From assembly GCA_964606085.1 (NCBI GenBank), contig CAZSFD010000011.1:17763-81762 (forward strand): DNA of 64,000 nt, written 5' to 3'. The stretch's first letter is position 1, and each line of letters starts with the position of its first letter. This DNA is from an uncultured Anaerolineaceae bacterium. GTDB lineage: Bacteria > Chloroflexota > Anaerolineae > Anaerolineales > UBA4823. Positions 7,971 to 60,536 of this stretch are shown in pieces. The notes under the pieces were generated by a model that was given only the letters and a program-made list of their open reading frames with translations, did no database searches and was not told the DNA's origin. The position numbers were made by a program, and so were the translations under genes.

Positions 7971-7995
7971 GGGATTATGGAATGTAGGGCTGAAT

Positions 7996-12218: not shown

Positions 12219-12268
12219 GGGTGGATTTATAAACTATCCCGGTCAATCCGTCAAACTCTGTTAAATAA

Positions 12269-12315
12269 AAAACTTCCGAAGTTGCGAACCGTAGGTTCGC
12301 AACTTCGGAAGTTTT
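12269..12315 (-). terminator. 22-bp perfect hairpin with U-tract between the SBP (substrate-binding protein) gene and the ATPase gene (intra-operon attenuator/terminator)
   Basis: AAAACTTCCGAAGTTGCGAACC GTA GGTTCGCAACTTCGGAAGTTTT. On the mRNA strand it is followed by UUAUUU. Confidence 0.7.
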
Positions 12316-12326
12316 CATGCTTTGGC

Positions 12327-13676: not shown

Positions 13677-14882
13677 TTACGTCGTCGCGGCGGGCAACTG
13701 AATTACATCGAGTGCCTGCCCCAGGTCAGCGATCAAATCATCTACATCTTCCAGGCCCACGGCCAGGCGCACCAGGCTGTCGGTGATGCCTACGGCCTGG
13801 CGTTCTGCGGATGAGAATTCGAAATGCGACATAAGCGCTGGTTGTTCGACCAGCGTTTCTGTGCCACCGAGCGAGGCCGCGATGAGCGGGATGCGCAGCG
13901 CGTCTACGAAGCGCTCAGTCTCTTCGAGCGATCCGGCCACCTCGAAGCTGACCACGCCGCCGAAGCCGCGCATCTGCGCTTTGGCTATGGCGTGATCGGG
14001 GTGCGAAGCCAGGCCGGGATACCACACACGCCGAATGGCGGGGTGGCCTTCCAGAAATTCGGCGATGCGTTGGGCGTTGTGGTTGTGGCGTTCCATGCGC
14101 ACGGCTAACGTTTGTACGCCGCGCAACACCTGGCTGGCGGTGTGGGGCGCAGCAATGCCGCCCAACAACAGCAGGTGTGGCCGCCTGGCGCTGATCAATT
14201 CTGCACTGCCGATCAGCACGCCAGCCAACAGATCATTATGGCCTCCCAGGTATTTGGAAGCCGAGTGAATGACCAGGTCAATGCCGAAATCGAGTGGGTT
14301 TTGGTTGCAGGGGGTGGCGAAGGTGGCATCTATGAGCGTTTTCAGGCGATATTGCCGGGCCACGGCAACCAGCCTTTCCATGTCCAGCACGCGCAAATAG
14401 GGGTTCGTGGGCGATTCGCACAGGAGCAGCCGTGTGTTGGGGCGGATGGCGGTTTCGAGCGCGGCGAAATCGCCCATGGGCACGATACTCGTTTCGATGC
14501 CAAATTTTGGCAAGAACTCGAGGCAGAAATCTCGGGTATGGCGATAACTATCGTCACCGAGGAGCAGGTGTGAACCGCTCGAAAGCATCGAAAGCAAGGT
14601 GGTGGTGATGGCTGCCATGCCCGAGGCAAATAAGATGGCTGCCTCGCCATGTTCGAGGGCGGCCAGGGCTGTTTCGCAGGCGGTGACGGTGGGGTTGGCA
14701 AAGCGCCCATATTGCGTTCGATCACTGCCGCCCCACAGACGCGCTTCCTGGTAGGCGCGCAAATCTGCGCTGCTGTCAAACGTAAAGGTGGCCGATTCGA
14801 CGATGGGGGTATGAATGGCGTGGTAGGGTTGTGGGTGTTCGCGCCCGGCGTGAACTGACTGCGTGGATGCGTGGGTCTTCAT
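13677..14882 (-). CDS. Cys/Met-metabolism PLP enzyme (cystathionine gamma-synthase / beta-lyase family)
   Basis: NPT motif and SASKYLGGHNDLLAGV with the PLP lysine. Start taken at ATG 14882; the ORF-track TTG is at 14894. Confidence 0.85.
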   Translation of the reverse strand: MKTHASTQSVHAGREHPQPYHAIHTPIVESATFTFDSSADLRAYQEARLWGGSDRTQYGRFANPTVTACETALAALEHGEAAILFASGMAAITTTLLSMLSSGSHLLLGDDSYRHTRDFCLEFLPKFGIETSIVPMGDFAALETAIRPNTRLLLCESPTNPYLRVLDMERLVAVARQYRLKTLIDATFATPCNQNPLDFGIDLVIHSASKYLGGHNDLLAGVLIGSAELISARRPHLLLLGGIAAPHTASQVLRGVQTLAVRMERHNHNAQRIAEFLEGHPAIRRVWYPGLASHPDHAIAKAQMRGFGGVVSFEVAGSLEETERFVDALRIPLIAASLGGTETLVEQPALMSHFEFSSAERQAVGITDSLVRLAVGLEDVDDLIADLGQALDVIQLPAATT

Positions 14883-14897
14883 TGCAGAACCCAATTT

Positions 14898-15557
14898 TCA
14901 AACGTCCAGCCGGTAACCAACGCCACGGATTGTTTTCAAGAACTCTGGCGAGCGTGGGTTCTCCTCGATGGCATTGCGCAGCCAACTGATATGAACATCC
15001 AGGCTGCGCGTGTCGGCTGTGTATTCGGTTTGCCATACTTCGCGGAATAGCTTTTCCCGTTCATGCACTTCCCCCGGCTTTTTGAGAAAGATTTGCAGCA
15101 AGTGGGTCAGGCGAGGCGTCAGGCGCGCTTCGCGGTTATTGCAGGTGACACGTCGTTTTTCTACGTCCAGGCGGATTGCGCCAGCCTGTAAGAGCATTTT
15201 TCCCGCGCCGGGCAGCAGGTGGCTGATGTGGTTGAGCAGCTTGCGCTGTGAAAAGGGCGGTGTAAGGGTAGCGCTGGCGCAATGATCGTTTTCATCGAGG
15301 GGATGCTCCGGATTGGTTAGCAGCAGGATCGGCAACTCTTTCATCTGGTCATGCACATCACAGCAAATTCGTTTGCCGCTGCTGCGCATCGAAGCAGCAT
15401 TGATGACGATCAGGTCAGGGGTAAATTCGGGCAGCCTGGCGATGGCAGCAACCCCGGTAGACACAACATCCACAATATAATCTTTCTTGCGTACAACAGG
15501 GACAAAAGACGGGCTATCAGCCCGTTTGCCTTCTACCCATAAAATTTTAGCTTTCAT
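14898..15557 (-). CDS. Atypical OmpR-family response regulator (receiver lacks the phospho-acceptor Asp)
   Basis: Receiver plus winged helix (RSLDVHISWLRNAIE...GVGYRL). Start at ATG 15557 (MKAKILWVEG). The expected DD is EG, the acceptor D is N (PDLIVINAAS), and the conserved K is P (LTPPF). Confidence 0.8.
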   Translation of the reverse strand: MKAKILWVEGKRADSPSFVPVVRKKDYIVDVVSTGVAAIARLPEFTPDLIVINAASMRSSGKRICCDVHDQMKELPILLLTNPEHPLDENDHCASATLTPPFSQRKLLNHISHLLPGAGKMLLQAGAIRLDVEKRRVTCNNREARLTPRLTHLLQIFLKKPGEVHEREKLFREVWQTEYTADTRSLDVHISWLRNAIEENPRSPEFLKTIRGVGYRLDV

Positions 15558-15755
15558 CGCAGCGCCCCTTTTCTGAAAGGCCCAAGTGGTGATGAGTGGT
15601 GCGGAATTATACCCCAATCTTAAAAGGATACAATAGAACTCGCGTACTGATTTTTTTAACATTGTGGGTTGGTTGCATCCCCGTAAAGCCCATGTTACAA
15701 TCCATTCATCCATGCGTAAGTACGATGGAGCCGCATCGCTTTTTGTGGAGGCCAC

Positions 15756-22048: not shown

Positions 22049-23746
22049 TTATGGGGTGTTTTCGACCTGTGTGTTTTGCAGGGGCAGGGTATCTTTCAGG
22101 TCGGCGTAGACGACCAGCCGTTTGAGATAGCGCTTGAATTCGTCGTTCCAGTCGGTGCAGGTGATCAGGCTGATTTGGGGGTTTGTGGTGGGGTGGGTCA
22201 CGGCTAAATCGCCTTCTTCAACGACAACTTGTTCGCGTACGGTGTAGGTGTACAGGTTTTCTGCAGTGTAGACCTGGATGACATCGCCGGTTTTGAGTTG
22301 GTCGAGATAGCGGAAGGGGCCGTTTTCGCCGACCAGGGTGACATGCCCGGCCAGCGCTGTGTTGCTGCCCAACCCCGGCCAGGAGGTATTGCCCAGCCAG
22401 GCGATCTCCTGTTTCAGGCCGGCGATCATCCAGCTTTCGCCGTCGAAAGGCACGTATTTGACGATAGTATCCACGTTTAGGGCGGGAATGGCCAGACGGG
22501 TGACGGGGCTGGTATCGAGGACGATGCCGGGTTCTGTTTCGGGCAGGGCGGTGGGGGAGGGGATGGGAAAATCGGGCAGTGCGCTGATTTCGGTGGGGGC
22601 AGTGAAGATGTACCCGGTGGTGTCTTCGGTGGGGAAGATGGGGGCGATGGCATAGCCGGCCATTTTTTCGGCGAGGTGGGTTGGGGCAATGGCGATGGGG
22701 AGGCGCGCCTCGGGCGAGCGCCAGAACCACCCACTGCCGGCCGCACCAACGACTGCCCCGGCGAGCAGTAAGGCGACTCCGGCAAGAAGGTAGCGGCCAA
22801 TTTGGCTTTGTTCTTGTTGGCGCGCCCACAGGGCATACCAGATGGTGAAGAAGCCGGCCAGCGCCGCCGCGCCTGCCAGGAAGAGCAGCGACCAGTCTAT
22901 GGGGTGGGTGGGATTTTCAAGCGGTTGGAGGCCGGTGCCAGGCAGCCCAGAGACGACGACGCGGTAGTTGGCGGTGGCGGTGCGGGTGTTGTTGGGGGCG
23001 TAGGTAAGGCTGATGCTGTTAACCAGGTTGACGGTTGCGTTGGCGGTGCTGTTGACGCTGGTTTCGATGGTGACGGTGACAATTTTACTCGGCAAGATTT
23101 CGCCGATCAGCACTGTTACGGCATGGTTCTGGCGGTTGATTGTTCCCTGGGTTGTTTTGGTGTTGCTGGTGATATCTATGGTGGTGGGGAAGGAATCGGT
23201 CAGGATGACATCTTGTGCGGGGGCCAGGCCGTTATTGGTGATTTTGACGATGAAGGTGATCTTTTGCCCGACGCGCGCTTCTGAGGGGTTGACGGTGATG
23301 GCGATGGTGGGGTTGGGGGTGATTGTTCCGGTGGCGGTGGGGGTGGGAGGGGTGCCGGTGGTTGTGCGGGTGGCCGTGGGTGTGGGTGTGGCGGTATCGG
23401 GTATTTGTTTGAAGATGAGCGGTAAGAATTTTCGAATGGCTGTGGCCGTGTGTGTGGGCGTTGCCGTGGGGGTGGCGGTCGTTGTGGCCGTCTGGGTGGC
23501 TGTGCCTGTTTCGGTGGGGGTGCTGGTAGATGTGGCCGTTCCGGTGGTGGTACCCGTGGATGTGGCGGTTTCGGTGGCCGTTGCCGTCGGCGTGCTGGTT
23601 TCGGTGGGGGTGGGGGTATCTGTGGCTGGTTCGGGTTGGCTGACGGCGCTGAATTGGGGGATGGCCGCGGCTGCGAACCAAAGCGCCAGGCCGAAGATCA
23701 CCACGAATAAAAAACGGGCAATGCGTTGATGATTAAGGGGAAGCAT
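22049..23746 (-). CDS. Sortase-substrate fusion: signal peptide, T/P-rich linker, DUF11-like domain, LPGTG + TM + basic tail, second TM, sortase catalytic domain
   Basis: LPGTG is encoded at 22931-22945 (CTG CCT GGC ACC GGC). It is followed by WSLLFLAGAAALAGFFTIWYALWA RQQEQ. The C-terminal domain has LAGH, SLITC (TLxTC-type Cys) and RLVV. Confidence 0.8.
   Translation of the reverse strand: MLPLNHQRIARFLFVVIFGLALWFAAAAIPQFSAVSQPEPATDTPTPTETSTPTATATETATSTGTTTGTATSTSTPTETGTATQTATTTATPTATPTHTATAIRKFLPLIFKQIPDTATPTPTATRTTTGTPPTPTATGTITPNPTIAITVNPSEARVGQKITFIVKITNNGLAPAQDVILTDSFPTTIDITSNTKTTQGTINRQNHAVTVLIGEILPSKIVTVTIETSVNSTANATVNLVNSISLTYAPNNTRTATANYRVVVSGLPGTGLQPLENPTHPIDWSLLFLAGAAALAGFFTIWYALWARQQEQSQIGRYLLAGVALLLAGAVVGAAGSGWFWRSPEARLPIAIAPTHLAEKMAGYAIAPIFPTEDTTGYIFTAPTEISALPDFPIPSPTALPETEPGIVLDTSPVTRLAIPALNVDTIVKYVPFDGESWMIAGLKQEIAWLGNTSWPGLGSNTALAGHVTLVGENGPFRYLDQLKTGDVIQVYTAENLYTYTVREQVVVEEGDLAVTHPTTNPQISLITCTDWNDEFKRYLKRLVVYADLKDTLPLQNTQVENTP
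23318..23626 (-). repeat. Thr/Pro/Ala low-complexity coding repeat (linker of the sortase-fusion protein)
   Basis: TDTPTPTETSTPTATATETATSTGTTTGTATSTSTPTETGTATQTATTTATPTATPTHTA...TPTPTATRTTTGTPPTPTATG. Confidence 0.8.
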
Positions 23747-31736: not shown

Positions 31737-32387
31737 CTATGGGCTGATCAGGCCTTTGCGGATGGCATATTTGACCAATTCCCCCCGGCTGTGCAGGCCC
31801 AGCTTACGCATCAGGTTCTCGCGGTGGCGGGCCACGGTGTGCTTGCTGATCGAAAGCATCTCAGCGATCTCCTCGTTCGATTTGCCCTCGGCCAGCACGG
31901 CCAACACCTCCTGCTCGCGGGCGGTCAGGCCGTCCATTTGGGCGGGCGGCACGTCGGTGGCGCGGCTGAGAAAATCGCTGACGAGCAGCTTGGCTAACGA
32001 TGGGTAGATGTAAACCTCGCCGCGATGCACCGATTCGATGGCGGCGATCAAGTCTTCAGGGGCGGCGCGCTTTGGCACATAGGCCGATGCCCCCGCTTGC
32101 AGCATCTCGAAGAAATACTGCTCATCTTCGTGGATGGTGAGGGCGATGATGGCGGTTTGCGGGAGGCGCTGCTTGAGCCGCCGGGTGGCCTCGATGCCTG
32201 AAATATCGGGCAGGGTGATGTCCATGATGACGATATCGGGTTGAAGCTGCCCGGTCATGTGGATGGCTTGTTCACCGGTGGCCGCCTCGCCGATGATCTT
32301 CAAATTGGGCTGGCTTTCCAGCAGCATACGCAGCCCGGTGCGCACCACGGCGTGGTCATCTACCAACAACAGGCGAATTTCATCCAT
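31737..32387 (-). CDS. NarL/FixJ-family response regulator
   Basis: LLVDDH, DIVIMDITLPDISG and a LuxR-type HTH (LTAREQEVLAVLAEGKSNEEIAEMLSISKHTV). Confidence 0.9.
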   Translation of the reverse strand: MDEIRLLLVDDHAVVRTGLRMLLESQPNLKIIGEAATGEQAIHMTGQLQPDIVIMDITLPDISGIEATRRLKQRLPQTAIIALTIHEDEQYFFEMLQAGASAYVPKRAAPEDLIAAIESVHRGEVYIYPSLAKLLVSDFLSRATDVPPAQMDGLTAREQEVLAVLAEGKSNEEIAEMLSISKHTVARHRENLMRKLGLHSRGELVKYAIRKGLISP

Positions 32388-33864
32388 GTTTTTCTCCGTT
32401 TTCTCCCAGGGCGACGGTCACTTCGACCAGGGTGCCATGCCCCGGCGACGAGGCGAGCAGGCATTGGCCGCCGATCAATTCGGCGCGTTCGATCATCCCG
32501 AGCAAGCCCCAGCAAGGTTGATTTTTTTTGTTGTAGCAGGTTTCATCCACGTCGAATCCGCAGCCGTTATCTTCGATGCGCAGGGTGATGTCGTGGTTGA
32601 CCTGGATCAGCGTCACGCTGACGTGGCTGGCCTGGGCGTGACGGGCGGCATTGGTGAGGGCCTCTTGGGCGATGCGATACAGCGCTACGCGGATTTCCTC
32701 GGATAAGGCCGGGATATTGCCCCGGCTGCTGACCTGGATTTGCAGCCCCGAACGCTGCGAAAATTCGTTGGCATACCAGCGCAGGGCGGCCAGCAGGCCC
32801 AGGTCGTCGAGTTGGGGCGGGTGCAGGCCGGTAACGAGGTGCTGCAACTCGTCCAGGCCGGTTTTGACCAGTTTTTCGAGTTGGGCGGCCTGCTGCGCCA
32901 CGCGTTCGGGGTGGGTGGGGATGTTTTCGGACACGCCGCGCAGTCCCATACCGAGGGCGGTGAGCGTCTGGCCGAGTTCATCGTGCAGTTCGCGGGCGAT
33001 GCGCTGGCGTTCGTTCTCCTGTGCTTTGACGGTCTGGTGCAGCAGGGCAGCGCGCAGTTCTTCCAGGCGGTGCTGTTCGGCGTTTTGCTCCTGGCGCATT
33101 TTTTCCAGTTTTTGGCTGGTTTCCACCTCGAAGGCGCGCAGCGAGCGGACGATGGCTGCCGCTGCCCATGCCGCTGTGACGGCACGGAACACTTGCACCG
33201 GAAAGCCAAACCAGGCCAGAAAGGTTGTCGTGTTGAGGTAGGACGAGGGGAACAGCGGCGACGGCGCGGTGAATAACTGTCCGAGGCACCCATAGAGCAA
33301 GAATGCCAGCGCCGCCAGCGTGACATCGCGCCGGATGCTCTGCATCCCGCTGGCCGCGAACTGATCGCGTTGGACGATCAGCCCCCGCGCGACCAGCAAT
33401 CCGCCAGGGATGGCCAGGGCGTAGCGCGTGTAGACATCGGCTGTCACCACCCAATCGGCCCGGCCCTGCAAACTCCAGAAAATCCACCCCAGGCCAACCA
33501 GCCAGATCGCCGTTACGACGCCAAGCATGATCGTCCGGCGTTTCAGGTGGGCGGGGCCGATCAGCAGGCGCACGCCGAACGTGACCAATAATAAAAACGA
33601 GACCGCTAACAGAATGACGCGCAGGGGGGCGATCCAGGCGATGGCCGGTTCGACTTCGCGGTGATCGTGGATCAGCACGAACATCTCCAGCCACTCGTGG
33701 CCGCCGTGGATCAGGCCAAACCAGGCCAACGGGCGCAATGCCTGGGCATATTCGAGTGACGAAGTACGGCCTGTCTCGATCAGGATGGCGAAGCCCATGC
33801 TGAAGAAAGACAGGCCGTAGAGGAAGTAGACGAGGATGATATTTTGGGTGAAGAAATCAGCCAT
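32380..33864 (-). CDS. NarX-type sensor histidine kinase with a polytopic membrane sensor domain
   Basis: ~250 aa with 6-7 hydrophobic helices (includes HGGHEWLEMFVLIHDH). The HisKA_3 H-box is ARELHDELGQTL. The HATPase has an N-box and GHGTLV. Confidence 0.9.
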   Translation of the reverse strand: MADFFTQNIILVYFLYGLSFFSMGFAILIETGRTSSLEYAQALRPLAWFGLIHGGHEWLEMFVLIHDHREVEPAIAWIAPLRVILLAVSFLLLVTFGVRLLIGPAHLKRRTIMLGVVTAIWLVGLGWIFWSLQGRADWVVTADVYTRYALAIPGGLLVARGLIVQRDQFAASGMQSIRRDVTLAALAFLLYGCLGQLFTAPSPLFPSSYLNTTTFLAWFGFPVQVFRAVTAAWAAAAIVRSLRAFEVETSQKLEKMRQEQNAEQHRLEELRAALLHQTVKAQENERQRIARELHDELGQTLTALGMGLRGVSENIPTHPERVAQQAAQLEKLVKTGLDELQHLVTGLHPPQLDDLGLLAALRWYANEFSQRSGLQIQVSSRGNIPALSEEIRVALYRIAQEALTNAARHAQASHVSVTLIQVNHDITLRIEDNGCGFDVDETCYNKKNQPCWGLLGMIERAELIGGQCLLASSPGHGTLVEVTVALGENGEKHG

Positions 33865-33872
33865 ATCTGGCT

Positions 33873-35051
33873 TTATTTTTCAGGCGCGCCTGATTTAATC
33901 CATTCAATGACACTTTGCAGTTCTTCATCGGTCAGTTGGCCGGGGTGGCTGCCGGCCTGTTGAATTTGCACCAGGATGCTGTTATCGGGGTCGCCAGGGA
34001 TGATGCCAGGGCCGCTGTTGCCTTCGGCCAGGGCATCCTGGTAGGTTGCCAGCGAATAGCCGCCAACCTTTGTCACGCCGTGGCAGGTGGAACAGCGGTT
34101 GCGGAACAGGCCCTCGTAGTTGCCCGCCCACGAGTTGGCTGAGACGCCCTCGCCGAGGGTGGGCGTGGGTGCAACTGTGATGGTGGGCCGCGGGCTGGGC
34201 GTGACCGGGGCAAATACCTGCGCCGTCTCGCCCTGCGGCACCGTGGTGATGGCGGTGCTTTCATAGCCGAGGAAGAAATAGCTGAAAATGCCAAAGCCGA
34301 TCACGATCACCGCGGCGATGGGGGCGTAGATCATCTGGCGCTTGCGCAGCACCGCCGCAGGGATGGCTTCCTTGTGACTGGCCTCGATTTCGGCCAGTTG
34401 CGCCGGGTGCTCGTCTTCCATCTCGTGGCGGGTCATCTGGCCGGTGAAGATGCTCTTGTTGAACATCTTGATGTGGACGTGGTAGAAGTGCCACAGGATG
34501 ATGGCTGCCACGGCCAGCACGGCCTCTGCTCCGTGGGCGGCTTTGGCCGCAGGGATGGCCTCGCCGGGCAGGAAGCGGGTGGACAGCACCGGGTTCCACA
34601 TCAGGAAGCCCGTCAGCGCCATCAACACCGTTCCCCACACCACCGCCAGGTATTCAGCCTTTTCGGCGTAGTTGAACTGGCCGTATTGGGCGTGCTCTTT
34701 GCGGATGCCAAGATAATAGGCGATGTCCTGAAAAACATGCTTGATGTCATCCAGCCAGGGCATCATCGTCCAACGGGCGCGCAGCACGATGATGCGGTAC
34801 AGCAATTCCAGCACATGATACAGGCTGACAATCAACATCACGATGGCAGCCCAGTGATGGATGACACGCGTCCCTTCGATGCCGCCGAACAGGCGCAGGA
34901 AGAACAGGCTGATGGGTGACTCGGCGAACTTCTGGATCAACCCGGTCAGGCCGAGCAGCGAGAACGAGACCAGGAACACGCCATGTTGGATGCGCTGGCT
35001 GAGGTCGAAGCGCTGGTAGGTTTGGGGCGAGGCGGCGTGATGCTCACTCAT
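33873..35051 (-). CDS. FdnI/HydC-type cytochrome b fused to an extra TM helix and a C-terminal monoheme c-type (Planctomycete-cytochrome-C-like) domain
   Basis: Start at ATG 35051 (MSEHHAASPQTYQRF...). There are four helices with conserved His (IQHG, IHHWAA, AAHGAE, WHFYHVH), a fifth TM (MIYAPIAAVIVIGFGIFSYFFLGY), a T/P linker, then NRCSTCHG...IIPGDPDNSILV. Confidence 0.8.
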   Translation of the reverse strand: MSEHHAASPQTYQRFDLSQRIQHGVFLVSFSLLGLTGLIQKFAESPISLFFLRLFGGIEGTRVIHHWAAIVMLIVSLYHVLELLYRIIVLRARWTMMPWLDDIKHVFQDIAYYLGIRKEHAQYGQFNYAEKAEYLAVVWGTVLMALTGFLMWNPVLSTRFLPGEAIPAAKAAHGAEAVLAVAAIILWHFYHVHIKMFNKSIFTGQMTRHEMEDEHPAQLAEIEASHKEAIPAAVLRKRQMIYAPIAAVIVIGFGIFSYFFLGYESTAITTVPQGETAQVFAPVTPSPRPTITVAPTPTLGEGVSANSWAGNYEGLFRNRCSTCHGVTKVGGYSLATYQDALAEGNSGPGIIPGDPDNSILVQIQQAGSHPGQLTDEELQSVIEWIKSGAPEK

Positions 35052-36450
35052 GGCGGGCCTCCTCGCCGAGTTGGGCGGGTTCGTCGGGTGGAACTGGGTC
35101 ATCGCTGAGGGGGCTGGGTTTTTCTGGCGGGGATGCCTCTGTTGGGATTTCTGCAGGCGGTGTAGGGTTTTCCCTGGCCGTGTCAGGCGGCATGGCAGCC
35201 TGATCGGGTTCGAGTGGCCCGGTTGCATCTGCTTCGGTGGGAATGGCGTCGGGTTCGGGTTGCGGGGCGGCAGGCTCTTCAGAGGCCGGGGCGTGCGGCT
35301 TGCGTGGCAGGCGGTTGATCACCCGGCGGCTGGCATCCAGCACTACCATCACCCCCATGCCGCCCAACACCAGCGGGATGAAGAATTTGTAGAACAGGTC
35401 TACATAATAGACGATGGGGTATTTTTCGGGCGAGGGGTAGTAGTGCGACATCCACGAAGCGGGGAAATCGGACGTGGCATCGGGGTGGCAGGTCTGGCAG
35501 CGCGCCAGCAGGTTTTCGCGCACTTGCAGGCCCTTCTGCGGGTCATCGGTGCGCAGGATTTCGTGGACGCCGTGGCAGTCGTAGCAGACGGGCTTATTGG
35601 TTTCAGCGTCAGGCGACTGCTTCTCGAAGATCATCACTGTCGTGCCGTGAAAATCGGCCACATAAGTATCGAGGACTTCGGTGGTCAGGCCGTACTTCGC
35701 CATGCGCGTGGAGTCGGTGTGGCAGTTGGCGCAAATCTGCGGCGATTGCAGGCGGTAGGCGGCGGTGGTGGGGTCGCCAATGTTGTGGACGCCGTGACAG
35801 TCAATGCAGGTGGGCACGTCCAGGTTGCCTTCGGTGAGCGCCGCGCCATGCACGCTGGCGGCATATTTCTCGTAAATGGCGCTGTGGCATTTGGCGCAGG
35901 TTTGCGGTATCCACAGGTGCGCTTCGGGCAAAATTTCATTTGTTTCGGGGTTGGTAAGGCGCTGCACGGCATGGGCGCTGTGGCAGTCAGTGCAGGCGGC
36001 GGCCTCACGCTTTCCGGCGGCCAGGGCCTGGGCGTGGACGCTGTCGGCGGCCTGGCTGGCCTCGCCGCTGTGGCAGAAGGCGCAGCTTTCGTTCAGCTTC
36101 AGAGTCACTTCGCGCCCATCCTGGGCGCTGAAGGCCGGGTGCGGGTACGCCCCCACGTCGCGGTGGCACTGCACGCAGGCGTAGCCTAACGCACCGTGGA
36201 CGGAATTGGTGTGTTCGAGCGGGTCTACGAACAGGTCGAGCGTGCTGCCATCGCCGAGCGGCATGGTCTGGCCAGGCTGGCCGTGGCAGCTCAGGCAGGT
36301 TTCGTCGCTAATCGAGAGTGGCGCGGGGGTCGGTTCGGCGGCCTGGGGCAGCGGTGCGGCACGAACAGGGATCGCCAGGATCAGCAGGCTGCTTGCCAGC
36401 AAGATCACGCCGGATAGGAGGGGGAAGAATTTGGGGATGGTGAGGTGCAT
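35044..36450 (-). CDS. Nonaheme c-type cytochrome with C-terminal TM anchor and Pro-rich tail
   Basis: Signal peptide and 9 CXXCH (CLSCH CVQCH CAFCH CTDCH CAKCH CIDCH CANCH CYDCH CQTCH). The TM is FIPLVLGGMGVMVVL. Confidence 0.9.
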   Translation of the reverse strand: MHLTIPKFFPLLSGVILLASSLLILAIPVRAAPLPQAAEPTPAPLSISDETCLSCHGQPGQTMPLGDGSTLDLFVDPLEHTNSVHGALGYACVQCHRDVGAYPHPAFSAQDGREVTLKLNESCAFCHSGEASQAADSVHAQALAAGKREAAACTDCHSAHAVQRLTNPETNEILPEAHLWIPQTCAKCHSAIYEKYAASVHGAALTEGNLDVPTCIDCHGVHNIGDPTTAAYRLQSPQICANCHTDSTRMAKYGLTTEVLDTYVADFHGTTVMIFEKQSPDAETNKPVCYDCHGVHEILRTDDPQKGLQVRENLLARCQTCHPDATSDFPASWMSHYYPSPEKYPIVYYVDLFYKFFIPLVLGGMGVMVVLDASRRVINRLPRKPHAPASEEPAAPQPEPDAIPTEADATGPLEPDQAAMPPDTARENPTPPAEIPTEASPPEKPSPLSDDPVPPDEPAQLGEEARHE

Positions 36451-36461
36451 ATTCGATTTCC

Positions 36462-37142
36462 CTACTCGCTTTTCTCGCCGCTCAGGCGTTCATATTCTTT
36501 GGCGTGGAACTGGCGCATCTCTGCTTCGCTCAACTTGCCGGTGAACATGCTCAAATTCAGGCGTTCAATGTGGACGTGGTAGATATGCCACACCATGATG
36601 AAGATGGTCGCCACGATGGCTTCGGTGCTGTGGGCCAATTTCGCCGCTGGCACAATCCCGCCGGGGAAAAGCTGCGTGAACTGCACCGGGAACCAGATAA
36701 TGAACCCCGAAATGACCATGATCCCGATGCCGAAGAACAGAAACCAATAGGTGATCTTCTGCTCGAAGTTGTAGCGGCCAAAGGCGGGGCGGTCTTTGCG
36801 CAGGAAGAGCAGGTACTTGAGCATCTGCCAGGCATCGCGCACGTCTTGCACCGTCGGCAGCATGTCGCCGGGCAGTTTGCGCCGCACCAACAGGATGATG
36901 ATCACGGCCAGGTGGTAGATCACTTCGAGCGTCAGCACGATGGCGGCGACGTGGTGGATATTGCGGATCAGTTCCACCTGTTCGGGCGTGGCGAGCAATT
37001 GCTGGCTCCAGGCGGCCTCACGGTATTTTTGCGGCAGGCCGGTCAGCAGCAGCACCACGAAGCTCAGGATCAGCAGGGCGTGTTCCCAGCGCTGCGCCAG
37101 CGAGAAGCGCCAGAAGGTGCGTTCTTGCGTAATGGTTTTCAT
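36462..37142 (-). CDS. FdnI/HydC-type (Ni/Fe-hydrogenase b-type) cytochrome b
   Basis: Start at ATG 37142 (MKTITQERTFWRF...), an ATGA overlap with the upstream stop. Four helices with His ligand candidates (RWEHA, IHHVAA, LAHSTE, WHIYHVH). Confidence 0.8.
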   Translation of the reverse strand: MKTITQERTFWRFSLAQRWEHALLILSFVVLLLTGLPQKYREAAWSQQLLATPEQVELIRNIHHVAAIVLTLEVIYHLAVIIILLVRRKLPGDMLPTVQDVRDAWQMLKYLLFLRKDRPAFGRYNFEQKITYWFLFFGIGIMVISGFIIWFPVQFTQLFPGGIVPAAKLAHSTEAIVATIFIMVWHIYHVHIERLNLSMFTGKLSEAEMRQFHAKEYERLSGEKSE

Positions 37143-38305
37143 GGCAGGTTCCTCCGCACGCGCCCGGCCGTGTTGCGGACGATTTGCAGCAGCACATAAA
37201 TGACCGAGGCCCACAGCACAACCGGCATGAACCAATCGTAGAACGATTTGACGTAAAACACGAACGGCGTGCGGGCCAGGCTGATCTCGTTGTGGCCTGT
37301 CCAGGCCGCGGTCCAGTTCGGGCCTGCGCCGGGGTGACACTCGGCGCAGGTGGCTTGCAGGTTGGCCGGGTTGACTTTCGAGGCCGGGTCGTCGGTCTGA
37401 CGGATGTCGTGGATGCCGTGGCAGTCGGTACACACGGCGCTGTCGTGCCAGATGGCCGGCCAGCGTGCCTTGTAGACGGAAACATCCACGCCATGCCAGG
37501 AGAGCTTGTAGATGTCGTAAACATCGGCTGGCAGGCCATATTGGCTCATCATGACTTCATCGGCGTGACAGTTGGCGCACATTTCGGGGGTCTGCACGCG
37601 GAATTGCTCGGTGCGTGGGTCTTGAATATCATGCACGCCGTGACAATCGGTGCAGACGGGCACATCGGGGTTGTCCTCGCCGATCAGGGCCGCACCATGA
37701 ATGCTCTGCTTGTAGGCATCCACGATCTCGCCGTGACATTGAGCGCACGTCTCCGAGATGTGGGCGCGCGGCTCGTTGGGCGGGCGCACGTCGTGTGCGC
37801 CGTGGCAATCGGTGCAGACCGGGGCTTCGGGGTGGCCGGAAGCGGCCATCTGGGTGTGGATGCTGTCCTGGGCCTTCTCGTAATTGTTGGAATGGCACTT
37901 CTGGCAGGTCTGGTAGTAACCGAGGGAGAGTTCGCGGCGGCTGGTGTAGGTCTGCGCCGGGTGCGGGTAGGTGGTGATGTTGTTGTGACACGCCTCGCAT
38001 TCGATTCCGAGCGAACTATGGATGGAATGCTCGATCTCGTCGGCTGAGATCACCAGCGAAAGCGTCTCGCCGCTGGGCAGGGCGATGTCTTTGACCTTAT
38101 CGGGGTTGCTGTGACAGCCCAGGCAGTATTTTTCGGTTTCCTGTGCGGCGGGGGCGGTCACATCGGCGGCGCGGGCGGGCGTGGAAATACCAAGCAAGAC
38201 CGCGATCACAAGGAAGGTAAGACCGACAATTTGTGGCGCAAATCTCAGATTTGCGCTACGTTTGGCGGCAGCTGGAAACCGCGCTTTGGAGGGGTTACTT
38301 GCCAT
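37139..38305 (-). CDS. Nonaheme c-type cytochrome with C-terminal TM anchor
   Basis: Start at ATG 38305 (MASNPSKARF..., signal anchor). 9 CXXCH (CLGCH CEACH CQKCH CTDCH CAQCH CTDCH CANCH CTDCH CAECH). Paralog of 35044-36450. Confidence 0.9.
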   Translation of the reverse strand: MASNPSKARFPAAAKRSANLRFAPQIVGLTFLVIAVLLGISTPARAADVTAPAAQETEKYCLGCHSNPDKVKDIALPSGETLSLVISADEIEHSIHSSLGIECEACHNNITTYPHPAQTYTSRRELSLGYYQTCQKCHSNNYEKAQDSIHTQMAASGHPEAPVCTDCHGAHDVRPPNEPRAHISETCAQCHGEIVDAYKQSIHGAALIGEDNPDVPVCTDCHGVHDIQDPRTEQFRVQTPEMCANCHADEVMMSQYGLPADVYDIYKLSWHGVDVSVYKARWPAIWHDSAVCTDCHGIHDIRQTDDPASKVNPANLQATCAECHPGAGPNWTAAWTGHNEISLARTPFVFYVKSFYDWFMPVVLWASVIYVLLQIVRNTAGRVRRNLP

Positions 38306-38447
38306 TCTTCTCTCCCGCGGGCGGTTCAGCCACCAGCCCCAGGCGGCGCAAAAGATACGAGATGCCGAACAAAATCCCCAACGGCACCGCGCAGCGCACC
38401 ACAAACAGCAACCCGACGAAAATTGGGTTGGGATCGGCGTGTTCCAT
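38295..38447 (-). CDS. Uncalled 50-aa single-TM peptide, translationally coupled to the nonaheme cytochrome gene
   Basis: GGAGATCAATACTT ATG at 38447. The product is MEHADPNPIFVGLLFVVRCAVPLGILFGISYLLRRLGLVAEPPAGEKNGK. Third codon positions are mostly G/C. The stop TAA (38297-38295) overlaps the ATG 38305 of the next gene. It is below the ORF-track size cut-off. Confidence 0.45.
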   Translation of the reverse strand: MEHADPNPIFVGLLFVVRCAVPLGILFGISYLLRRLGLVAEPPAGEKNGK

Positions 38448-38506: not shown

Positions 38507-39739
38507 TCACTTCTCGCCATCGAACAATGGCAGCAGCTTGACGCCCAACGTCAGCAGCAGCAGCGCATAGCCGATGATCCCCACCGCCACGCCCCACTCC
38601 ACCAGCGACGGCCAGTATTCCCCGGCGGGCAACTGGTACAACGTCCCCGGCGAATAGGCCACCGGCACGAACAACCCGCTGACCGTGATGTTCCAGCGGT
38701 GGGTGATGATGCCGAGCATGCCCGAAATGCCGCCGATGACGAGGAAAAGCGGCGAACGGTTGAAGCGCGGCGTCAGAAACAGCACCGCCGGGACGATGAT
38801 GCCCAGGCCCACTTCGCCCACCCAAAAACTGAAATTGTAGGGCGTCTGCTGGTTCAAAATGAACAGCGACTCGCTCACCAGCGGCGTGCGGCCATAGTAG
38901 GCCACCGTGGCCAAATCCCAAAATTTGATGTAGCCGTAGGCCAAAAAGGCCAGCCCGCTGAATTTGGCAATCGTGCGCAGTACATCGTGCGGCACGCGGC
39001 GCTTGAGCGTGATCCATTCGACCACCAGGGCAATCGTCATCGTCAGCGCCGGGCCGGCCGCCACCGCCGACAGGATGAACATGATCGGCATCGAGGGCTT
39101 GAACCAGATCGGGCGCGACTTGACGATGCCGTAGGTGGCTCCGAGCGAAGATTGATGCAGCAGCGAAATGCCCAGCCCCAACACGGCCAGCGCCGGGGCC
39201 AGCTTGTGCAGCAGGTGAGCGGCTTTGCGGATGTAGTCAATGTAGCGCACCCGGTCGAAGATTTTGGCCTCGGCGATCACCGGCAAAAACTCCACCACCA
39301 TGATCACGAGATAAATGGTGATGCACCAGGTAATTTCCCACAGCACCGAGTGGACGTTCCAGAACGCCCACGGATGCCAGAAGCGGTCGGGGCGGCCAAT
39401 ATCCATCACCAGCGTCAGCAGCGCCGACGTGTAGCCGATGAAGCCCACCAGCACGGCCAGGCGCACAATGGATTGGAAGTGTTTCAAGCCAAAGATGTAG
39501 ACGATGGCCGAAAGCGTGAACGCGCCCGCCCCCAGGGCGATGGACGACAGATCAATGGTGATCCACAACCCCCAGGGGACGAGGTCGCTCATATTGGTGA
39601 TCCATAGCCCCTGCCAGAACACATCCACGGCGGCCACCAACCCGATGGCCAGGCACAACCCGATGAAGGCCAGCCATGCCAGCATGGCCGGGCTGAGACG
39701 CGGCAGCGTGAAACCTTTGCGCGGCGCCAGGGTGGTCAT
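38507..39739 (-). CDS. NrfD/PsrC-family polytopic quinone-interacting membrane subunit
   Basis: 410 aa with ~10 hydrophobic helices. The N-terminal pattern VPWGLWITIDLSSIALGAGAF is typical of the NrfD family. ATGA overlap with the NrfC-like gene. Confidence 0.85.
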   Translation of the reverse strand: MTTLAPRKGFTLPRLSPAMLAWLAFIGLCLAIGLVAAVDVFWQGLWITNMSDLVPWGLWITIDLSSIALGAGAFTLSAIVYIFGLKHFQSIVRLAVLVGFIGYTSALLTLVMDIGRPDRFWHPWAFWNVHSVLWEITWCITIYLVIMVVEFLPVIAEAKIFDRVRYIDYIRKAAHLLHKLAPALAVLGLGISLLHQSSLGATYGIVKSRPIWFKPSMPIMFILSAVAAGPALTMTIALVVEWITLKRRVPHDVLRTIAKFSGLAFLAYGYIKFWDLATVAYYGRTPLVSESLFILNQQTPYNFSFWVGEVGLGIIVPAVLFLTPRFNRSPLFLVIGGISGMLGIITHRWNITVSGLFVPVAYSPGTLYQLPAGEYWPSLVEWGVAVGIIGYALLLLTLGVKLLPLFDGEK

Positions 39740-40566
39740 AGGCCCTCCTTTGGCGGGATATAGTAGACGTTGGCCTCCGTCCCCAGGTCTTCGCGCAGGC
39801 GGATGGTGGCGTGGGCGCGGATGTACTCGGAAACCGGGCTTTGTTCGTCGTTCAGGTCGCCAAAGACGCGCGCCCCCACCGGGCAGACGTTGACGCAGGC
39901 GGGCGTGGCTTCGGCGTCTACGCCGGGCATCAGGCCGCTGCGCAGGCCGTCATCAATGCGGTGAATGCAGAAGGTACACTTTTCCACCACACCGCGCGGC
40001 CGGCGTTCGACCTCGGCGATGCCCCAGGTGGGGATGTAGGGATTTTCCTCGCTGCGTTCCTGCCAGTTGAAGCGGCGGGCGTCGTAGGGACAGGCCACCT
40101 GGCAGTAGCGGCAGCCGATACAGCGGTCGTAATTCATCACCACCAGCCCATCTTCGCGGTGGTAGGTAGCTTGCACGGGGCAGACCTCCACGCAGGGGGC
40201 GTTCTGGCAGTGCAGGCAGGGCCGGGTGAAGAAAAATTCGCGCCCGGTGGATGTTTTCTCGTTGACGATGATGTTCCAGGGTTCGCCAGAAAGGACATCG
40301 TTGGTAGCGCTGCACGCCCGCTGGCAGTAGCCGCAGCCGATACATTTATCCAGGTCAATTGCCATGCCCCAACGGAACGGGCCGTGGCCGTCGCCATGCC
40401 CGTCGCCGTTGATGGAAAGTTGCTCGCTCTTGAGTTGTCCGAACGGCGAGAGCGGCCCGGTGGTAACGACCTGCGCCAGCAGCACCGAACCCGCCGCGGC
40501 CACCCCCACTTTGAGAAAATCACGGCGGGTCAGATCGACGACGACTTTGGTCTTTTTCTTAGCCAT
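39736..40566 (-). CDS. Tat-exported 4x[4Fe-4S] ferredoxin subunit (NrfC/PsrB-like)
   Basis: Twin-arginine signal LTRRDFLKVGVAAAG. Cys clusters CIGCGYCQRAC, CLHCQNAPCVEVCP, CIGCRYCQVACP, CTFC...CVNVCP. Confidence 0.9.
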   Translation of the reverse strand: MAKKKTKVVVDLTRRDFLKVGVAAAGSVLLAQVVTTGPLSPFGQLKSEQLSINGDGHGDGHGPFRWGMAIDLDKCIGCGYCQRACSATNDVLSGEPWNIIVNEKTSTGREFFFTRPCLHCQNAPCVEVCPVQATYHREDGLVVMNYDRCIGCRYCQVACPYDARRFNWQERSEENPYIPTWGIAEVERRPRGVVEKCTFCIHRIDDGLRSGLMPGVDAEATPACVNVCPVGARVFGDLNDEQSPVSEYIRAHATIRLREDLGTEANVYYIPPKEGL

Positions 40567-41563
40567 TCTCTTCCACCTCCACCAGCCGGATACGCTTGCT
40601 GACTACCCAGGCTGCCGCGCCGCCGGTGATCAGGCCGACAATCGCGCCCTGCGCCAGGCCGGTATACAGCCGCACCGTGCCAGCCGCCTTCAATTCGGCA
40701 ATCGCCTGCTCCTGCTCGCTGACTTTTTCTTCCAGCGAGAGCATTTCGGCGGTGTTGATGGTTTGCGTGATCTGCCCGGTCAGCTTGACGATCTCGTCGC
40801 GCGTGTGGACGGTATCCTGGTGGCAGCCGATACACGCATCCGAGCCGACGGTGAAGGTATGGCCGGTGGGGATCAGACCGCCGATGGGGTCATCCATACG
40901 CGGGCGGGTATACATGTGACAGTTGGAGCATTCCAGGCCGGCGTTGGCGTGCGTGCCGTGCGTAAAGGCCGTTCCGCTCTCTTTGTGGCAGTTGGTGCAT
41001 AGCTCGGTGACGGTGGGCGCGACCGGCTTCTGGGCGTGCGGGTTGTGGCAGGCCTGGCACTGAATCCCTTGCTGGCCGTGAGCGCTGGCGCGCCATTCGT
41101 CGGTGGTGTTTTTGTGACAGGTGGCGCAAAGGTTCTCATCGGGGGTGAGCGGCATCTGCGTGGCGGGGTGGCCTGGTTGGAAAGGCCCGTGGCACGATTC
41201 GCACGTCACGCCCTCTTCGTTGTAAGCGCCGTTGGCGGGGTTGAAGCCGGTGGTGTGGCATTCCAGGCAGGCCACCTGCGAGCCGAGTTCGCTCCAATCG
41301 CGCTGGAAGATGGGTGAGGAGAAGGCATGGGCGTGGCGGGTTTCCTGCCAATCGGTGTACAAATCTTCGTGGCAACTCTTACAGGATTCTGACCCGGCGT
41401 AGGATGCGACCGTCGGCGTTGCATCGGCGGCCACATCTGCCGCCTGGGCAGGCTGCGCCTGGCTCAACATGGCTCCTGCCGCCACACAAACTGCAAAAAC
41501 CAGCATAAATGCCAACCCGCTGCGTCCCCAAATTTTTGATAGCGTTAGCCATTTTCGATCCAT
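40559..41563 (-). CDS. Octaheme c-type cytochrome with coiled-coil and C-terminal TM anchor
   Basis: Signal peptide and 8 CXXCH (CKSCH CLECH CESCH CATCH CQACH CTNCH CSNCH CIGCH). The C-terminus is ...EEKVSEQEQAIAELKAAG...LAQGAIVGLITGGAAAWVV SKR. Confidence 0.9.
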   Translation of the reverse strand: MDRKWLTLSKIWGRSGLAFMLVFAVCVAAGAMLSQAQPAQAADVAADATPTVASYAGSESCKSCHEDLYTDWQETRHAHAFSSPIFQRDWSELGSQVACLECHTTGFNPANGAYNEEGVTCESCHGPFQPGHPATQMPLTPDENLCATCHKNTTDEWRASAHGQQGIQCQACHNPHAQKPVAPTVTELCTNCHKESGTAFTHGTHANAGLECSNCHMYTRPRMDDPIGGLIPTGHTFTVGSDACIGCHQDTVHTRDEIVKLTGQITQTINTAEMLSLEEKVSEQEQAIAELKAAGTVRLYTGLAQGAIVGLITGGAAAWVVSKRIRLVEVEENG

Positions 41564-41709: not shown

Positions 41710-41751
41710 ATGGATGCCACAGGCTTTTTTGCAAAAACCTGTGGCATCCAT
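41710..41751 (-). terminator. 14-bp perfect hairpin plus U-tract directly after the collagen-like cytochrome gene
   Basis: The mRNA sense reads ATGGATGCCACAGG TTTTTGCAAAAAAG CCTGTGGCATCCAT TTTGGTT, beginning 8 nt after stop 41760. Confidence 0.6.
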
Positions 41752-41759
41752 AATTCCTG

Positions 41760-42989
41760 TTATGGTTCTGGGGTTGGCTCGACCGGTTCGGGCGTGGGCG
41801 GCGTGTGGAAGCCGCTGGCCTCGGCGATCATCTCTTCGTCGGTGAAGTCGAAGCCGCCGGTGTGACAACTGCGGCAGGCAAAGTTCAGGCCGATTTGCGC
41901 GCCGCCGTTCTCGCTAAATTGTTCGATTTGGGTGGGGTTGATGGCAACCTGGTGGGTGCGCACGTCGCCGGTGAAGAGGGCGGCATTGCTCCAGGCGCTC
42001 TGGATGGCATAGGGCATGTGGCAGCTTTCGCAGGCCACATTCTTCATACTTTTGCGATATTGCGCCTCGCGCCAGTGACAATCGGCGCAGGCCGTGCGGG
42101 TGGCCGGCTGGCTGGCCTGGCGCAACTGCTCCACCCCGGCGTGCGGGTCGTGGCAGACCACACAGTCTATGACAGTGTGCTTGCCGGGAAAGAGATCACC
42201 GTAGGTATCCTGATGCTGAATGAAACCGTCGGCGATTTCGATCTCGCTGGAGCGGTGACATTGGTCGCACAGGGCGCTGCTGCGGTCAATGGTGGGATGC
42301 ACCATGGTCGGCGCGGCGACGTGCAGGCTGCCCGGCCCGTGGCAGGCTTCGCATTGCACGCCTGCCTCGGCCCAGGTTCCGGTCACGCCAGGCAGGGCGG
42401 CCGGGTTGTTGCTGCTCGGCCAGGTGGTGTAGCCGGTGGCATGGCAACTGCCGCAGGTGTTCGAGAGATTCTCCTCGCCGCTATGAAAGGCTACCCAGCC
42501 AGCCTGCGCTTTGACTTTGGAATTGGCGTAGTTGTATTGGCTGTCACCCGCGGTGATGATGTAGCCATCGGCGTTGGTGAAGACGGCTTTCCATTTGTAG
42601 CCGCCGATCACGTAGCTGATGTTTTCCCAGGTGCTTCCGGCGGGCGGCTCGGTCAACTGCGTGAAGGGATAAGCCGGGGCCTGGCCGCCTTCTACCTTGA
42701 CCATATTCCAGGCATGGCCCGATTTCATAAACATATCATACGTTTCTTGGTGGCATCCGGCGCAGGTTTGCGACCCCACGTATGTTGCGCCAACCGGGCC
42801 GGGTGGGCCAGCTTCGCCGGGCGCGCCGGCTGGCCCGGCGGGTCCTTCTTTGCCCTCTGGCCCTTGTGGGCCTTCCGGCCCAGCGGGTCCGGAAGGCCCC
42901 ATTGGTCCCACAGGACCGGTCTCACCGGCGCAGGCGGCCAGCAGCAGCGCCGTAAGGATGAGCAGGATACCAAATAAGATTCTTTTCAT
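41760..42989 (-). CDS. Lipoprotein octaheme c-type cytochrome with N-terminal collagen-like (Gly-X-Y)16 stalk
   Basis: SD GAGGAG fits ATG 42989 ([20 protein letters not shown]; an alternative ATG is at 42995). The lipobox is LLAAC, followed by 16 uninterrupted G-X-Y. There are 8 CXXCH (CAGCH CGSCH CEACH CDQCH CVVCH CADCH CESCH CRSCH). The tail is [14 protein letters not shown]. Confidence 0.9.
42783..42926 (-). repeat. Collagen-like triple-helix repeat coding region (16 x Gly-X-Y)
   Basis: [48 protein letters not shown], read directly from the reverse strand. Confidence 0.9.
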
Positions 42990-43019
42990 GGGCATTCTCC
43001 TCGCACTCGTTGTGAGCGT

Positions 43020-60053: not shown

Positions 60054-60536
60054 ATGGAACGACGTATATCAAAATCGGTTTTCGTCCTGGCGCTGGTTGT
60101 GGTGATGCTGGCGCTCTCAGCCTGCGCGGCGCAAAACACGCCGATGCCCGCAACCGCTATACTGAAACCTGCTGATGCCACTGAGCCCGTTGCCGCCACC
60201 GATGAGCCAACGGCACTCCCCGAAGCCGAGCCTACCGCCGCCCCGGTGGATGCTGACCTGGTCAGCTTTGCCAGCGACGTGATGCCCATTTTGCAGAATA
60301 GCTGCTGGAAATGTCATGGCGGTGATAAGACCGAGAAGGGCTTTGATGTCGGCAGTTATGCCACGCTGATGGCTGGTTCTGAAAAGGGTGCGATGGTCGT
60401 GCCGGGGGATGCCGCCAATAGTAAGTTTTACACATTAATCGAGCAAGGCAAGATGCCGAAGCGAGCCGATAAACTGCCCGATGATCAAATCCAGTTGATA
60501 CGCGATTGGGTCAACCAGGGCGCTTTGGATAACTAA
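60054..60536 (+). CDS. Lipoprotein monoheme c-type cytochrome (Planctomycete-cytochrome-C-like domain)
   Basis: SD GGAGG and lipobox LALSAC, followed by a P/A/E linker. The cytochrome domain reads CWKCHG...VVPGDAANSKFY and resembles the C-terminal domain of 33873-35051. Confidence 0.8.
   Translation: MERRISKSVFVLALVVVMLALSACAAQNTPMPATAILKPADATEPVAATDEPTALPEAEPTAAPVDADLVSFASDVMPILQNSCWKCHGGDKTEKGFDVGSYATLMAGSEKGAMVVPGDAANSKFYTLIEQGKMPKRADKLPDDQIQLIRDWVNQGALDN

Follow-up and report, generated by a model that had tools for sequence, protein, structure and literature searches.

We analyzed a stretch of 64,000 nucleotides from an uncultured Anaerolineaceae bacterium (Bacteria; Chloroflexota; Anaerolineae; Anaerolineales; UBA4823), contained in GenBank assembly GCA_964606085.1 (contig CAZSFD010000011.1, positions 17,763 to 81,762 of the forward strand). 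This 64-kb stretch is hereafter called the window, and coordinates are counted from its first letter. It contains a run of ten minus-strand genes, from 41563 to 31737, in which neighbors overlap or lie at most ~60 nucleotides apart. Among them are two consecutive gene pairs, each encoding a nonaheme cytochrome c followed by a diheme cytochrome b of the FdnI type: C1 (37139-38305, 388 residues) with B1 (36462-37142, 226 residues), and C2 (35044-36450, 468 residues) with B2 (33873-35051, 392 residues), all on the minus strand. A preliminary description of this DNA, made from the letters alone, had placed a tandem duplication of a split CbcL-like module at 35044-38305, a range that takes in only the very beginning of B2, a gene that extends to 33873. 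The translational coupling it reported was confirmed, with an ATGA overlap at the C1-B1 junction (37139-37142) and an overlap of 8 nucleotides at the C2-B2 junction (35044-35051). GGAGG-like sites lie upstream of the B1 and B2 starts, and the starts used for all four genes agree with Joint Genome Institute (JGI) calls on an identical metagenome contig. The window holds only four open reading frames (ORFs) rich in CXXCH, all in this cluster, and none of the four is a decaheme ORF.

The two c subunits have the architecture first described for them: a cleavable signal peptide (ARA/AD in C1, VRA/AP in C2), exactly nine CXXCH motifs each, and one C-terminal transmembrane helix. C1 and C2 are 41% identical over 352 residues (E=2e-92) and B1 and B2 are 36% identical over 219 residues (E=4e-43), which places the paralogy seen by eye, in peptides that are all present in the translations, far beyond chance. 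Nine CXXCH and nine further histidines are invariant in 121 aligned sequences (C1 orthologs and C2). This fits nine bis-His hemes, as measured for the periplasmic domain of CbcL, where all nine are low-spin (PMC9129911). The anchor helices of C1 and C2 contain no histidine. C2 ends in a Pro/Glu-rich, low-complexity cytoplasmic tail of 85 residues (35044-35300, minus strand), which is missing from its ortholog at another Chloroflexota locus (L003; L numbers denote loci from other genomes).

The AlphaFold model of C1 was of fair quality (predicted local distance difference test score 80, predicted template modeling score 0.69), and no solved fold was close to it, the best being hydroxylamine oxidoreductase and its family (E=4e-3, template modeling score 0.35). 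By sequence, the best PDB match of the c subunits was 28pb_A, a 278-residue cytochrome c (E=7e-5). We considered whether this chain is the CbcL periplasmic domain and rejected the assignment, since its heme spacing (33/23/22/24/29) is incompatible with that of GSU0274, the CbcL of Geobacter sulfurreducens. A C1/C2 profile retrieved 5044 cluster representatives at E≤1e-3, and its best 150 matches include proteins of Anaerolineae, Schekmanbacteria and Armatimonadota in which c and b are fused, several of them sharing the nine-heme spacing of C1. The C1 family is unusually conserved, with 62-75% identity among the best 120 matches of at least 8000 candidates. The labels given by annotation pipelines are 'cytochrome c3 family protein' as well as 'cytochrome b/b6 domain-containing protein' or 'formate dehydrogenase gamma subunit'.

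The b subunits both match PF01292 (61.5 bits for B1 and 45.5 for B2, against a gathering cut-off of 30.1) and can be aligned over their whole length with E. coli FdnI (1kqf_C; E=3.5e-9 and 1.2e-8, or 1.6e-17 with a family profile). FdnI His18, His57, His155 and His169 correspond to B1 His21, His63, His171 and His186 and to B2 His23, His65, His173 and His188. The b-heme ligand pairs are therefore His21/186 and His63/171 in B1 and His23/188 and His65/173 in B2, by analogy with His18/169 and His57/155 in FdnI. The equivalog cut-off of TIGR01583 (115.85) was missed, with 89.6 and 57.7 bits, and no FdnG or FdnH genes lie beside the b subunits, whose neighbors are multiheme cytochromes and not Mo or iron-sulfur (FeS) subunits. 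The four-helix architecture attributed to both proteins holds for B1 and for the cytochrome b domain of B2 (34362-35051), but B2 as a whole has a fifth transmembrane helix (34269-34325), equivalent to the sixth helix of CbcL and the fused homologs, and then a Pro/Thr linker with a PSCyt1-type monoheme c domain (33873-34181; CSTCH; PF07635, 31.4 bits). C1 and B1 together thus contribute five transmembrane helices, and C2 and B2 six. The monoheme domain has 'SHPG'/'DHF' in place of the expected Met ligand ('MP'), which suggests a putative His/His ligation. A second PSCyt1-type protein is encoded at 60054-60536 on the plus strand; this 160-residue lipoprotein has CWKCH and the Met-ligand motif MPKR, is 29% identical to the B2 domain, and may be a shuttle partner.

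CbcL carries nine CX2CH motifs in its N-terminal half, followed by a six-helix, HydC/FdnI-like diheme cytochrome b (PMC6295460, PMC9129911), and the literature thus bears out the architecture that the preliminary description had given. As comparator we used a Geobacteraceae-type cbcL gene at locus L085, reached via the fragment P0304 and reconstructed from three frames into a protein of 628 residues. Its CXXCH spacing is 23/26/23/24/29/28/43/30, compared with 23/25/23/24/29/28/43/28 in GSU0274 (Table S2 of PMC6295460), and the helices are equally placed. Identity to this protein was 30.6% over 317 residues for C1 (E=3e-33, 118 bits), 29.4% over 313 residues for C2 (E=5e-29), 27.6% over 214 residues for B1 (E=1e-25) and 27.5% over 229 residues for B2 (E=1e-22), and tblastn against the unaltered L085 DNA agrees with these matches. 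As a control, MHC334, an unrelated multiheme cytochrome (MHC) of the same window, scored only 49.7 bits. A further CbcL-type fragment (P0299) matched B1 with E=3e-22 and B2 with E=5e-19. When C1, C2, two natural fusions and CbcL were aligned jointly, all nine CXXCH fell in common columns, and the differences in spacing proved to be loop insertions after hemes 1-4. The two pairs are consequently split-gene relatives of CbcL, as had been proposed, with both domains homologous and the nine CXXCH corresponding one to one with those of L085. C1/B1 and C2/B2 are separate genes and are not fused into one six-helix polypeptide as in CbcL; fused c+b homologs with the same heme spacing occur naturally. 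The best 120 matches of searches seeded with CbcL b fragments were all of 394 residues or fewer and included no full-length CbcL (~619 residues), although it is present in NCBI, and a missing match in that database is therefore not evidence of absence. A scan of genomes with the alignment of fused proteins gave 80 loci, with no Geobacter among them.

In order to place the two pairs in a wider context, c and b homologs were mapped in 84 loci from other genomes. In Chloroflexota, C1-B1, always accompanied by a small protein termed S, and C2-B2 form separate groups of orthologs. Fourteen loci have C2-B2 by itself, and L002 has S-C1-B1 but no intact C2-B2. At that locus, a 224-residue open frame directly after B1 (11781-12452), with five CXXCH and 44% identity to C2, overlaps a gene on the opposite strand and is probably what is left of a C2-B2 pair that was lost. 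Neighbor-joining trees, the phylogeny that the preliminary description had called for, hold both groups apart; the c tree makes them sisters and B2 branches outside in the b tree. Extensions are frequent in B2-type proteins and consist of a PSCyt1 domain in L017, L022, L033, L084, L086 and L087 and of 6-10 further hemes in L018, L020, L027 and L028; at L003, a seven-heme NapC/NirT-like protein that is distinct from B2 (14042-15736) has the PSCyt1 domain at its C-terminal end instead. Because of the separate ortholog groups, the solo occurrence and the different accessories, the pairs are not a recent duplicate. C1-B1 and C2-B2 are ancient paralog classes, the product of neither a local nor a recent tandem duplication, so that the term used for them in the preliminary description is misleading.

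The pairs are embedded in a conserved cluster, all genes of which are on the minus strand. It begins with MHC334, a cytochrome c with eight CXXCH, a signal or anchor sequence and a C-terminal transmembrane helix (40559-41563). This gene overlaps by 8 nucleotides a gene for a four-cluster ferredoxin that resembles NrfC, DsrO and QrcC and carries a twin-arginine (TAT) export signal (39736-40566), followed by an NrfD/PsrC-type quinone-interacting membrane subunit with ~9 transmembrane helices (38507-39739; PF03916, 114 bits), closest to QrcD. Scores of this MHC-FeS-NrfD module were 268.9 bits with the QrcD model (cut-off 570), 174.7 with QrcC (cut-off 400) and, at the borderline, 201.8 with DsrO (cut-off 200), and no QrcB-like gene is present beside it. 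Next comes S, a conserved protein of 50 residues with a single transmembrane helix (38295-38447), whose 3' end overlaps the C1 start by 11 nucleotides and which had been overlooked in the preliminary description. Its core is NPIFVGLLFVVRCAVPLGILFGISYLLRRLGL; homologs confirmed by sequence lie upstream of C1 in L002, L003 and L033 (60-64% identity), and ORFs matching it in size and position are found in L086, L087 and the P0045 contig. S probably serves the C1-B1 module as its third subunit. A role for S as the replacement of the sixth helix missing from B1 was rejected, since the positive-inside rule makes S N-out/C-in, opposite to the last helix of B2 and CbcL.

Of seven examined Chloroflexota loci with a C1 ortholog, six keep the order MHC-FeS-NrfD-S-C1-B1-C2-B2 (the window, L003, L033, L086, L087 and the P0045 contig), with protein identities to the window of ~40-86% depending on locus and gene. 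A kinase and a regulator follow in the closest relatives. In the window these are a membrane histidine kinase of the HisKA_3 type (32380-33864), which starts 8 nucleotides beyond B2 and has the same place in L086 and L087, and a NarL/LuxR-type response regulator (31737-32387), which overlaps the kinase gene by 8 nucleotides and is also found in both of those loci. NrfD-type modules also occur near c+b modules in one Nitrospirota locus, in one deltaproteobacterial locus and in L085. At L085, cbcL is spread over three frames (3300-5100), probably through assembly errors, and an MHC-ferredoxin-NrfD cluster (7556-9095) lies 2.4 kb downstream of it, echoing the linkage in the window.

The two classes differ at a motif where the quinone site is predicted. 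From the topology of FdnI, the long basic loop before helix 3, which bears the motif aligned with FdnI Asn110...Gln113-Lys114, would be cytoplasmic, and the alignment accordingly predicts a quinone site on the cytoplasmic side. Every B1-type protein has a Gln-class motif (YNFEQK), as does E. coli FdnI (YNAGQK). A split 'core' group from Nitrospirota, Acidobacteriota, Dehalococcoidia, Myxococcota and others also belongs to this class (Y/F-D-Y/F-R/K-QK). Every B2-type protein has a Glu-class motif (e.g. FNYAEK), as do Geobacteraceae-type CbcL (L085) with its fragments (WTYWEK) and, with various motifs, most fused proteins. The extra last helix is likewise common to B2 and CbcL and missing from B1. 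HyaC was tried as a second reference for the Gln/Glu position and rejected, its sequence being too divergent for an alignment at that point. Eight of the nine loci in which both modules could be classified, from several phyla, combine a Gln with a Glu module, only L071 being Glu+Glu. The order is Gln then Glu in the window, L003/L004 and L033, and Glu then Gln in L005, L039, L042, L043 and L044. In the latter five loci, which are from other phyla, a CbcL-like Glu-class split pair with the motif FTYWEKFDYW and the helix-4 motif T-I-H-F-F-N-S-H lies upstream of the Gln-class pair. The contrast between Gln and Glu hints at different directions of flow; it would be compatible with classes that differ in direction or chemistry and equally with the two potential-tuned versions that the preliminary description had suggested. 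The C1-B1 and C2-B2 classes probably do different jobs.

Each pair joins a four-helix cytochrome b of the FdnI type to a periplasmic chain of nine bis-His hemes that is anchored by one C-terminal helix. The reading we favor, and consider rather probable, is that C1-B1 and C2-B2 are two independent inner-membrane bc oxidoreductases of the CbcL kind, with different jobs at the quinone pool. Electrons would pass between menaquinol/menaquinone at the inner site, the two b-hemes across the membrane and the c-heme chain, and from there to other extracytoplasmic cytochromes, such as the co-encoded 8-heme proteins and the monoheme domain of B2. If the flow is outward, with quinol oxidation, protons would be released into the cytoplasm and the membrane potential would pull on the electrons, because the quinone site is inside; acceptors more negative than menaquinone could then be reduced at a cost in yield, which is the model put forward for CbcL. 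With inward flow, the modules would generate proton-motive force like the redox-loop half of formate dehydrogenase-N. Both pairs and the adjacent MHC-FeS-NrfD module could make up a gate with several entries that connects the quinone pool to the outside of the cell. Genetic work shows CbcL to oxidize menaquinol at low potential, with protons released into the cytoplasm and a reduced yield (bioRxiv 10.1101/2022.08.31.506072); it is required for acceptors below -0.1 V (PMC6295460; PMC9129911; bioRxiv 10.1101/2021.04.15.440034, 10.1101/2022.08.31.506072), and its use is limited to acceptors of ~-0.1 to -0.21 V (bioRxiv 10.1101/2021.04.15.440034, 10.1101/2022.08.31.506072). A broader proposal is that FdnI-type bc modules form ancient Gln (quinone-reducing, as FdnI) and Glu (quinol-oxidizing, as CbcL) classes, told apart by the residue equivalent to FdnI Gln113, and that the two are deliberately paired, often with an NrfD module, in many bacteria including most cluster-carrying Chloroflexota, giving an unrecognized, widespread two-way or multi-gear gate from the quinone pool to extracytoplasmic cytochromes; we offer this tentatively and consider it rather unlikely.

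Several points weigh against two independent CbcL-kind complexes with different jobs. Everything past homology and gene anatomy is inferred. The CbcL comparator is a rebuilt frameshifted gene and not GSU0274 itself, the trees are neighbor-joining only, and the c and b trees conflict on the attachment of the B2 class. The double-module loci are phylogenetically clustered and amount to ~2-4 independent cases, so that the eight of nine are a lead with weak statistics. The quinone-site assignment depends on one structure, that of formate dehydrogenase-N with its inhibitor 2-heptyl-4-hydroxyquinoline N-oxide, in which the Asn110/Gln113 position of FdnI lines the menaquinone site. Finally, the conservation of the C1 family suits a housekeeping respiratory role as well as it suits extracellular electron transfer.

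Among other explanations, inward flow is a possible one, though on the unlikely side. One or both pairs, most likely the Gln-class C1-B1, would then be cytochrome c:menaquinone reductases that build proton-motive force as an FdnI-style redox-loop half, with electrons from reduced cytochromes, minerals, a syntrophic partner or periplasmic dehydrogenases. All biochemically defined relatives of FdnI and HyaC reduce quinone and B1 retains the FdnI-type Asn...Gln-Lys, a reverse mode of CbcBA has been proposed for syntrophic sulfate reducers (PMC10553843), and the model that gives the neighboring NrfD module its highest score is QrcD, which is part of a menaquinone reductase; however, no donor enzyme (hydrogenase, formate dehydrogenase) lies within the cluster, and one characterized protein per class is what links motif to direction. 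The cluster could also substitute for complex III as a normal quinol:cytochrome c oxidoreductase that feeds periplasmic terminal reductases or oxidases rather than extracellular acceptors. The C1 family, besides its conservation, which is unusual for a multiheme cytochrome, is very abundant in Chloroflexota metagenomes, its synteny is kept across distant members, the monoheme domain of B2 is class-I-like and of a type that often serves as an electron shuttle, and the window encodes the further PSCyt1 lipoprotein described above. We nevertheless find such a role rather improbable, for an inner-side quinol site, from which no protons would be released outside, would make a poor main coupling site, and the adjoining 8-heme lipoprotein on a collagen-like stalk resembles a wall-spanning wire.

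Fixed gene order, the overlaps and short gaps along the ten genes, the same order in six loci and the recurrence of Gln+Glu pairing in other phyla would all be expected if C1-B1, C2-B2 and MHC-FeS-NrfD formed one obligate supercomplex, a single machine in which the pairs are structural partners and not alternatives. C2-B2 standing alone in 14 loci and S-C1-B1 without its intact partner in L002 speak against such an obligate association, as do the other phyla, where the pairs stand in the opposite order and lack a neighboring NrfD module, and we judge the supercomplex quite unlikely. A closed loop between modules, with quinol out and quinone in, would moreover yield no net chemistry; its specific form, in which quinol is oxidized at NrfD and quinone reduced at B1, was ruled out thermodynamically. 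As to a recent redundant duplicate with one copy decaying, the adjacency and shared architecture of the pairs are what it would predict, but identities of merely 41% and 36% and the orthologs that each class has across Chloroflexota refute it. The comparison of heme ligands that the preliminary description had suggested points the same way, in that the nine CXXCH, the nine further histidines and the four b-heme histidines are all kept and neither pair is decaying, and we give this explanation practically no credence. Of the two outcomes that the preliminary description had named as refuting it, a lack of homology to the CbcL domains and decay of one copy, neither occurred.

Outside the pairs, the gene at 41760-42995 on the minus strand encodes a lipoprotein-type cytochrome with eight CXXCH and an N-terminal collagen-like Gly-X-Y stalk (PF01391 Collagen and cytochrome families; lipobox LLAAC). 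The collagen-like repeats span ~45 residues between the lipoprotein anchor and the heme domain, and the region could be a trimeric stalk that lifts the cytochrome through the wall. Orthologs of this cytochrome adjoin C2-type modules in L021 and L026. Directly 3' of the gene, a consensus scan found a terminator-like element (41710-41751, minus strand), a perfect 19-bp hairpin with a T-rich tail, and because of it the gene is probably a transcription unit of its own. Elsewhere in the window, a minus-strand ORF of 1939 residues (319-6138) without a Pfam match at E≤1e-5 lies where the GC content is 64-66% and the AT skew strong, and a 565-residue protein (22049-23746, minus strand) has DUF11 repeats and a C-terminal sortase domain, which fits a monoderm-type wall-anchoring system in the host.

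A CbcL-like machine is common as two adjacent genes in Chloroflexota and in many other phyla, a split form that searches for the fused protein miss, and it exists in two conserved classes that are often encoded side by side. It is a concrete marker by which electron gates at the quinone pool can be recognized in the Anaerolineae-type bacteria of sludge, sediments and soils, which are abundant and for the most part uncultured, and the natural split and fused pairs are material for structural study of b-c docking. The Gln/Glu difference is a one-residue hypothesis for direction or potential that is testable in Geobacter genetics. Should the pairing of the two classes prove to be such a gate, the 8-gene cluster of Chloroflexota would belong to the core of their respiration and not be an accessory.

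Among known systems, CbcL (GSU0274 and its Desulfuromonadales orthologs) is similar to the pairs in its periplasmic domain with nine CXXCH and bis-His hemes, its anchor helix, its diheme cytochrome b of the FdnI/HydC type and its lack of an FeS, flavin or Mo subunit between b and c, and B2 has the Glu-class motif and extra last helix of CbcL. In contrast to CbcL, c and b are here separate, translationally coupled genes of ~28-31% identity to it; the loops between hemes 1-5 are longer (42/31/30/23 versus 23/25/23/24), B1 is of the Gln class, without a sixth helix and with S, B2 adds a monoheme c domain, and the host belongs to Chloroflexota. The joining of a transmembrane b cytochrome with a multiheme c in CbcL has been called unique, and is known mainly from Desulfuromonadales (PMC6295460; bioRxiv 10.1101/2022.08.31.506072), and a 2018 survey of full-length CbcL homologs found none in Chloroflexi (PMC6295460). 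With FdnI (PDB 1KQF chain C) the b subunits share all four aligned heme histidines and B1 also the Asn...Gln-Lys motif, whereas the periplasmic partner is here a nonaheme cytochrome and not a Mo/FeS enzyme. The single C-terminal anchor helix of the c subunits mirrors the anchor of FdnH in the structure of formate dehydrogenase-N.

The remaining systems were compared by description only. CbcBA of G. sulfurreducens consists, like the pairs, of separate genes for a PF01292-type diheme b and a C-terminally anchored multiheme c at the quinone pool (bioRxiv 10.1101/2021.04.15.440034). In CbcBA, the order is b then c, the c subunit has seven hemes, and CbcB supplies three heme histidines, the fourth coming from the CbcA anchor (bioRxiv 10.1101/2021.04.15.440034); here, both b subunits have four histidines and the anchors none, c precedes b, and there are nine hemes. 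The 'cbcB-cbcA fusions in Chloroflexi' mentioned in that paper may correspond to the multiheme B2 fusions in L018, L020, L027 and L028. MtoC and MtrH, from Fe(II)-oxidizing and Fe(III)-reducing Betaproteobacteria, also join a nine-heme c to a b and have a membrane-proximal heme spacing (31/25/30/28) close to that of C1 (31/25/49/28), but they are six-helix fused proteins in porin-cytochrome clusters of diderms. Mco, proposed in ANME-2 (anaerobic methanotrophic) archaea, combines a VhtC-like cytochrome b with a 7-11-heme cytochrome, and its proposed role in extracellular electron transfer is that of a membrane-carrier:cytochrome c oxidoreductase (PMC9012536). It shares with the pairs the split genes and a hydrogenase- or formate dehydrogenase-type cytochrome b whose catalytic subunits are replaced by a multiheme cytochrome, and differs in being archaeal, linked to methanophenazine, ordered b then c and built on another cytochrome family. 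In the literature on CbcL together with Chloroflexota or Anaerolineae we found no description of the present module. Split b and multiheme modules (CbcBA and the proposed Mco) and the fused relatives CbcL, MtoC and MtrH were known already; new here are the split form of CbcL, the pairing of two classes, the small extra subunit, the b-c fusion and the conserved cluster.

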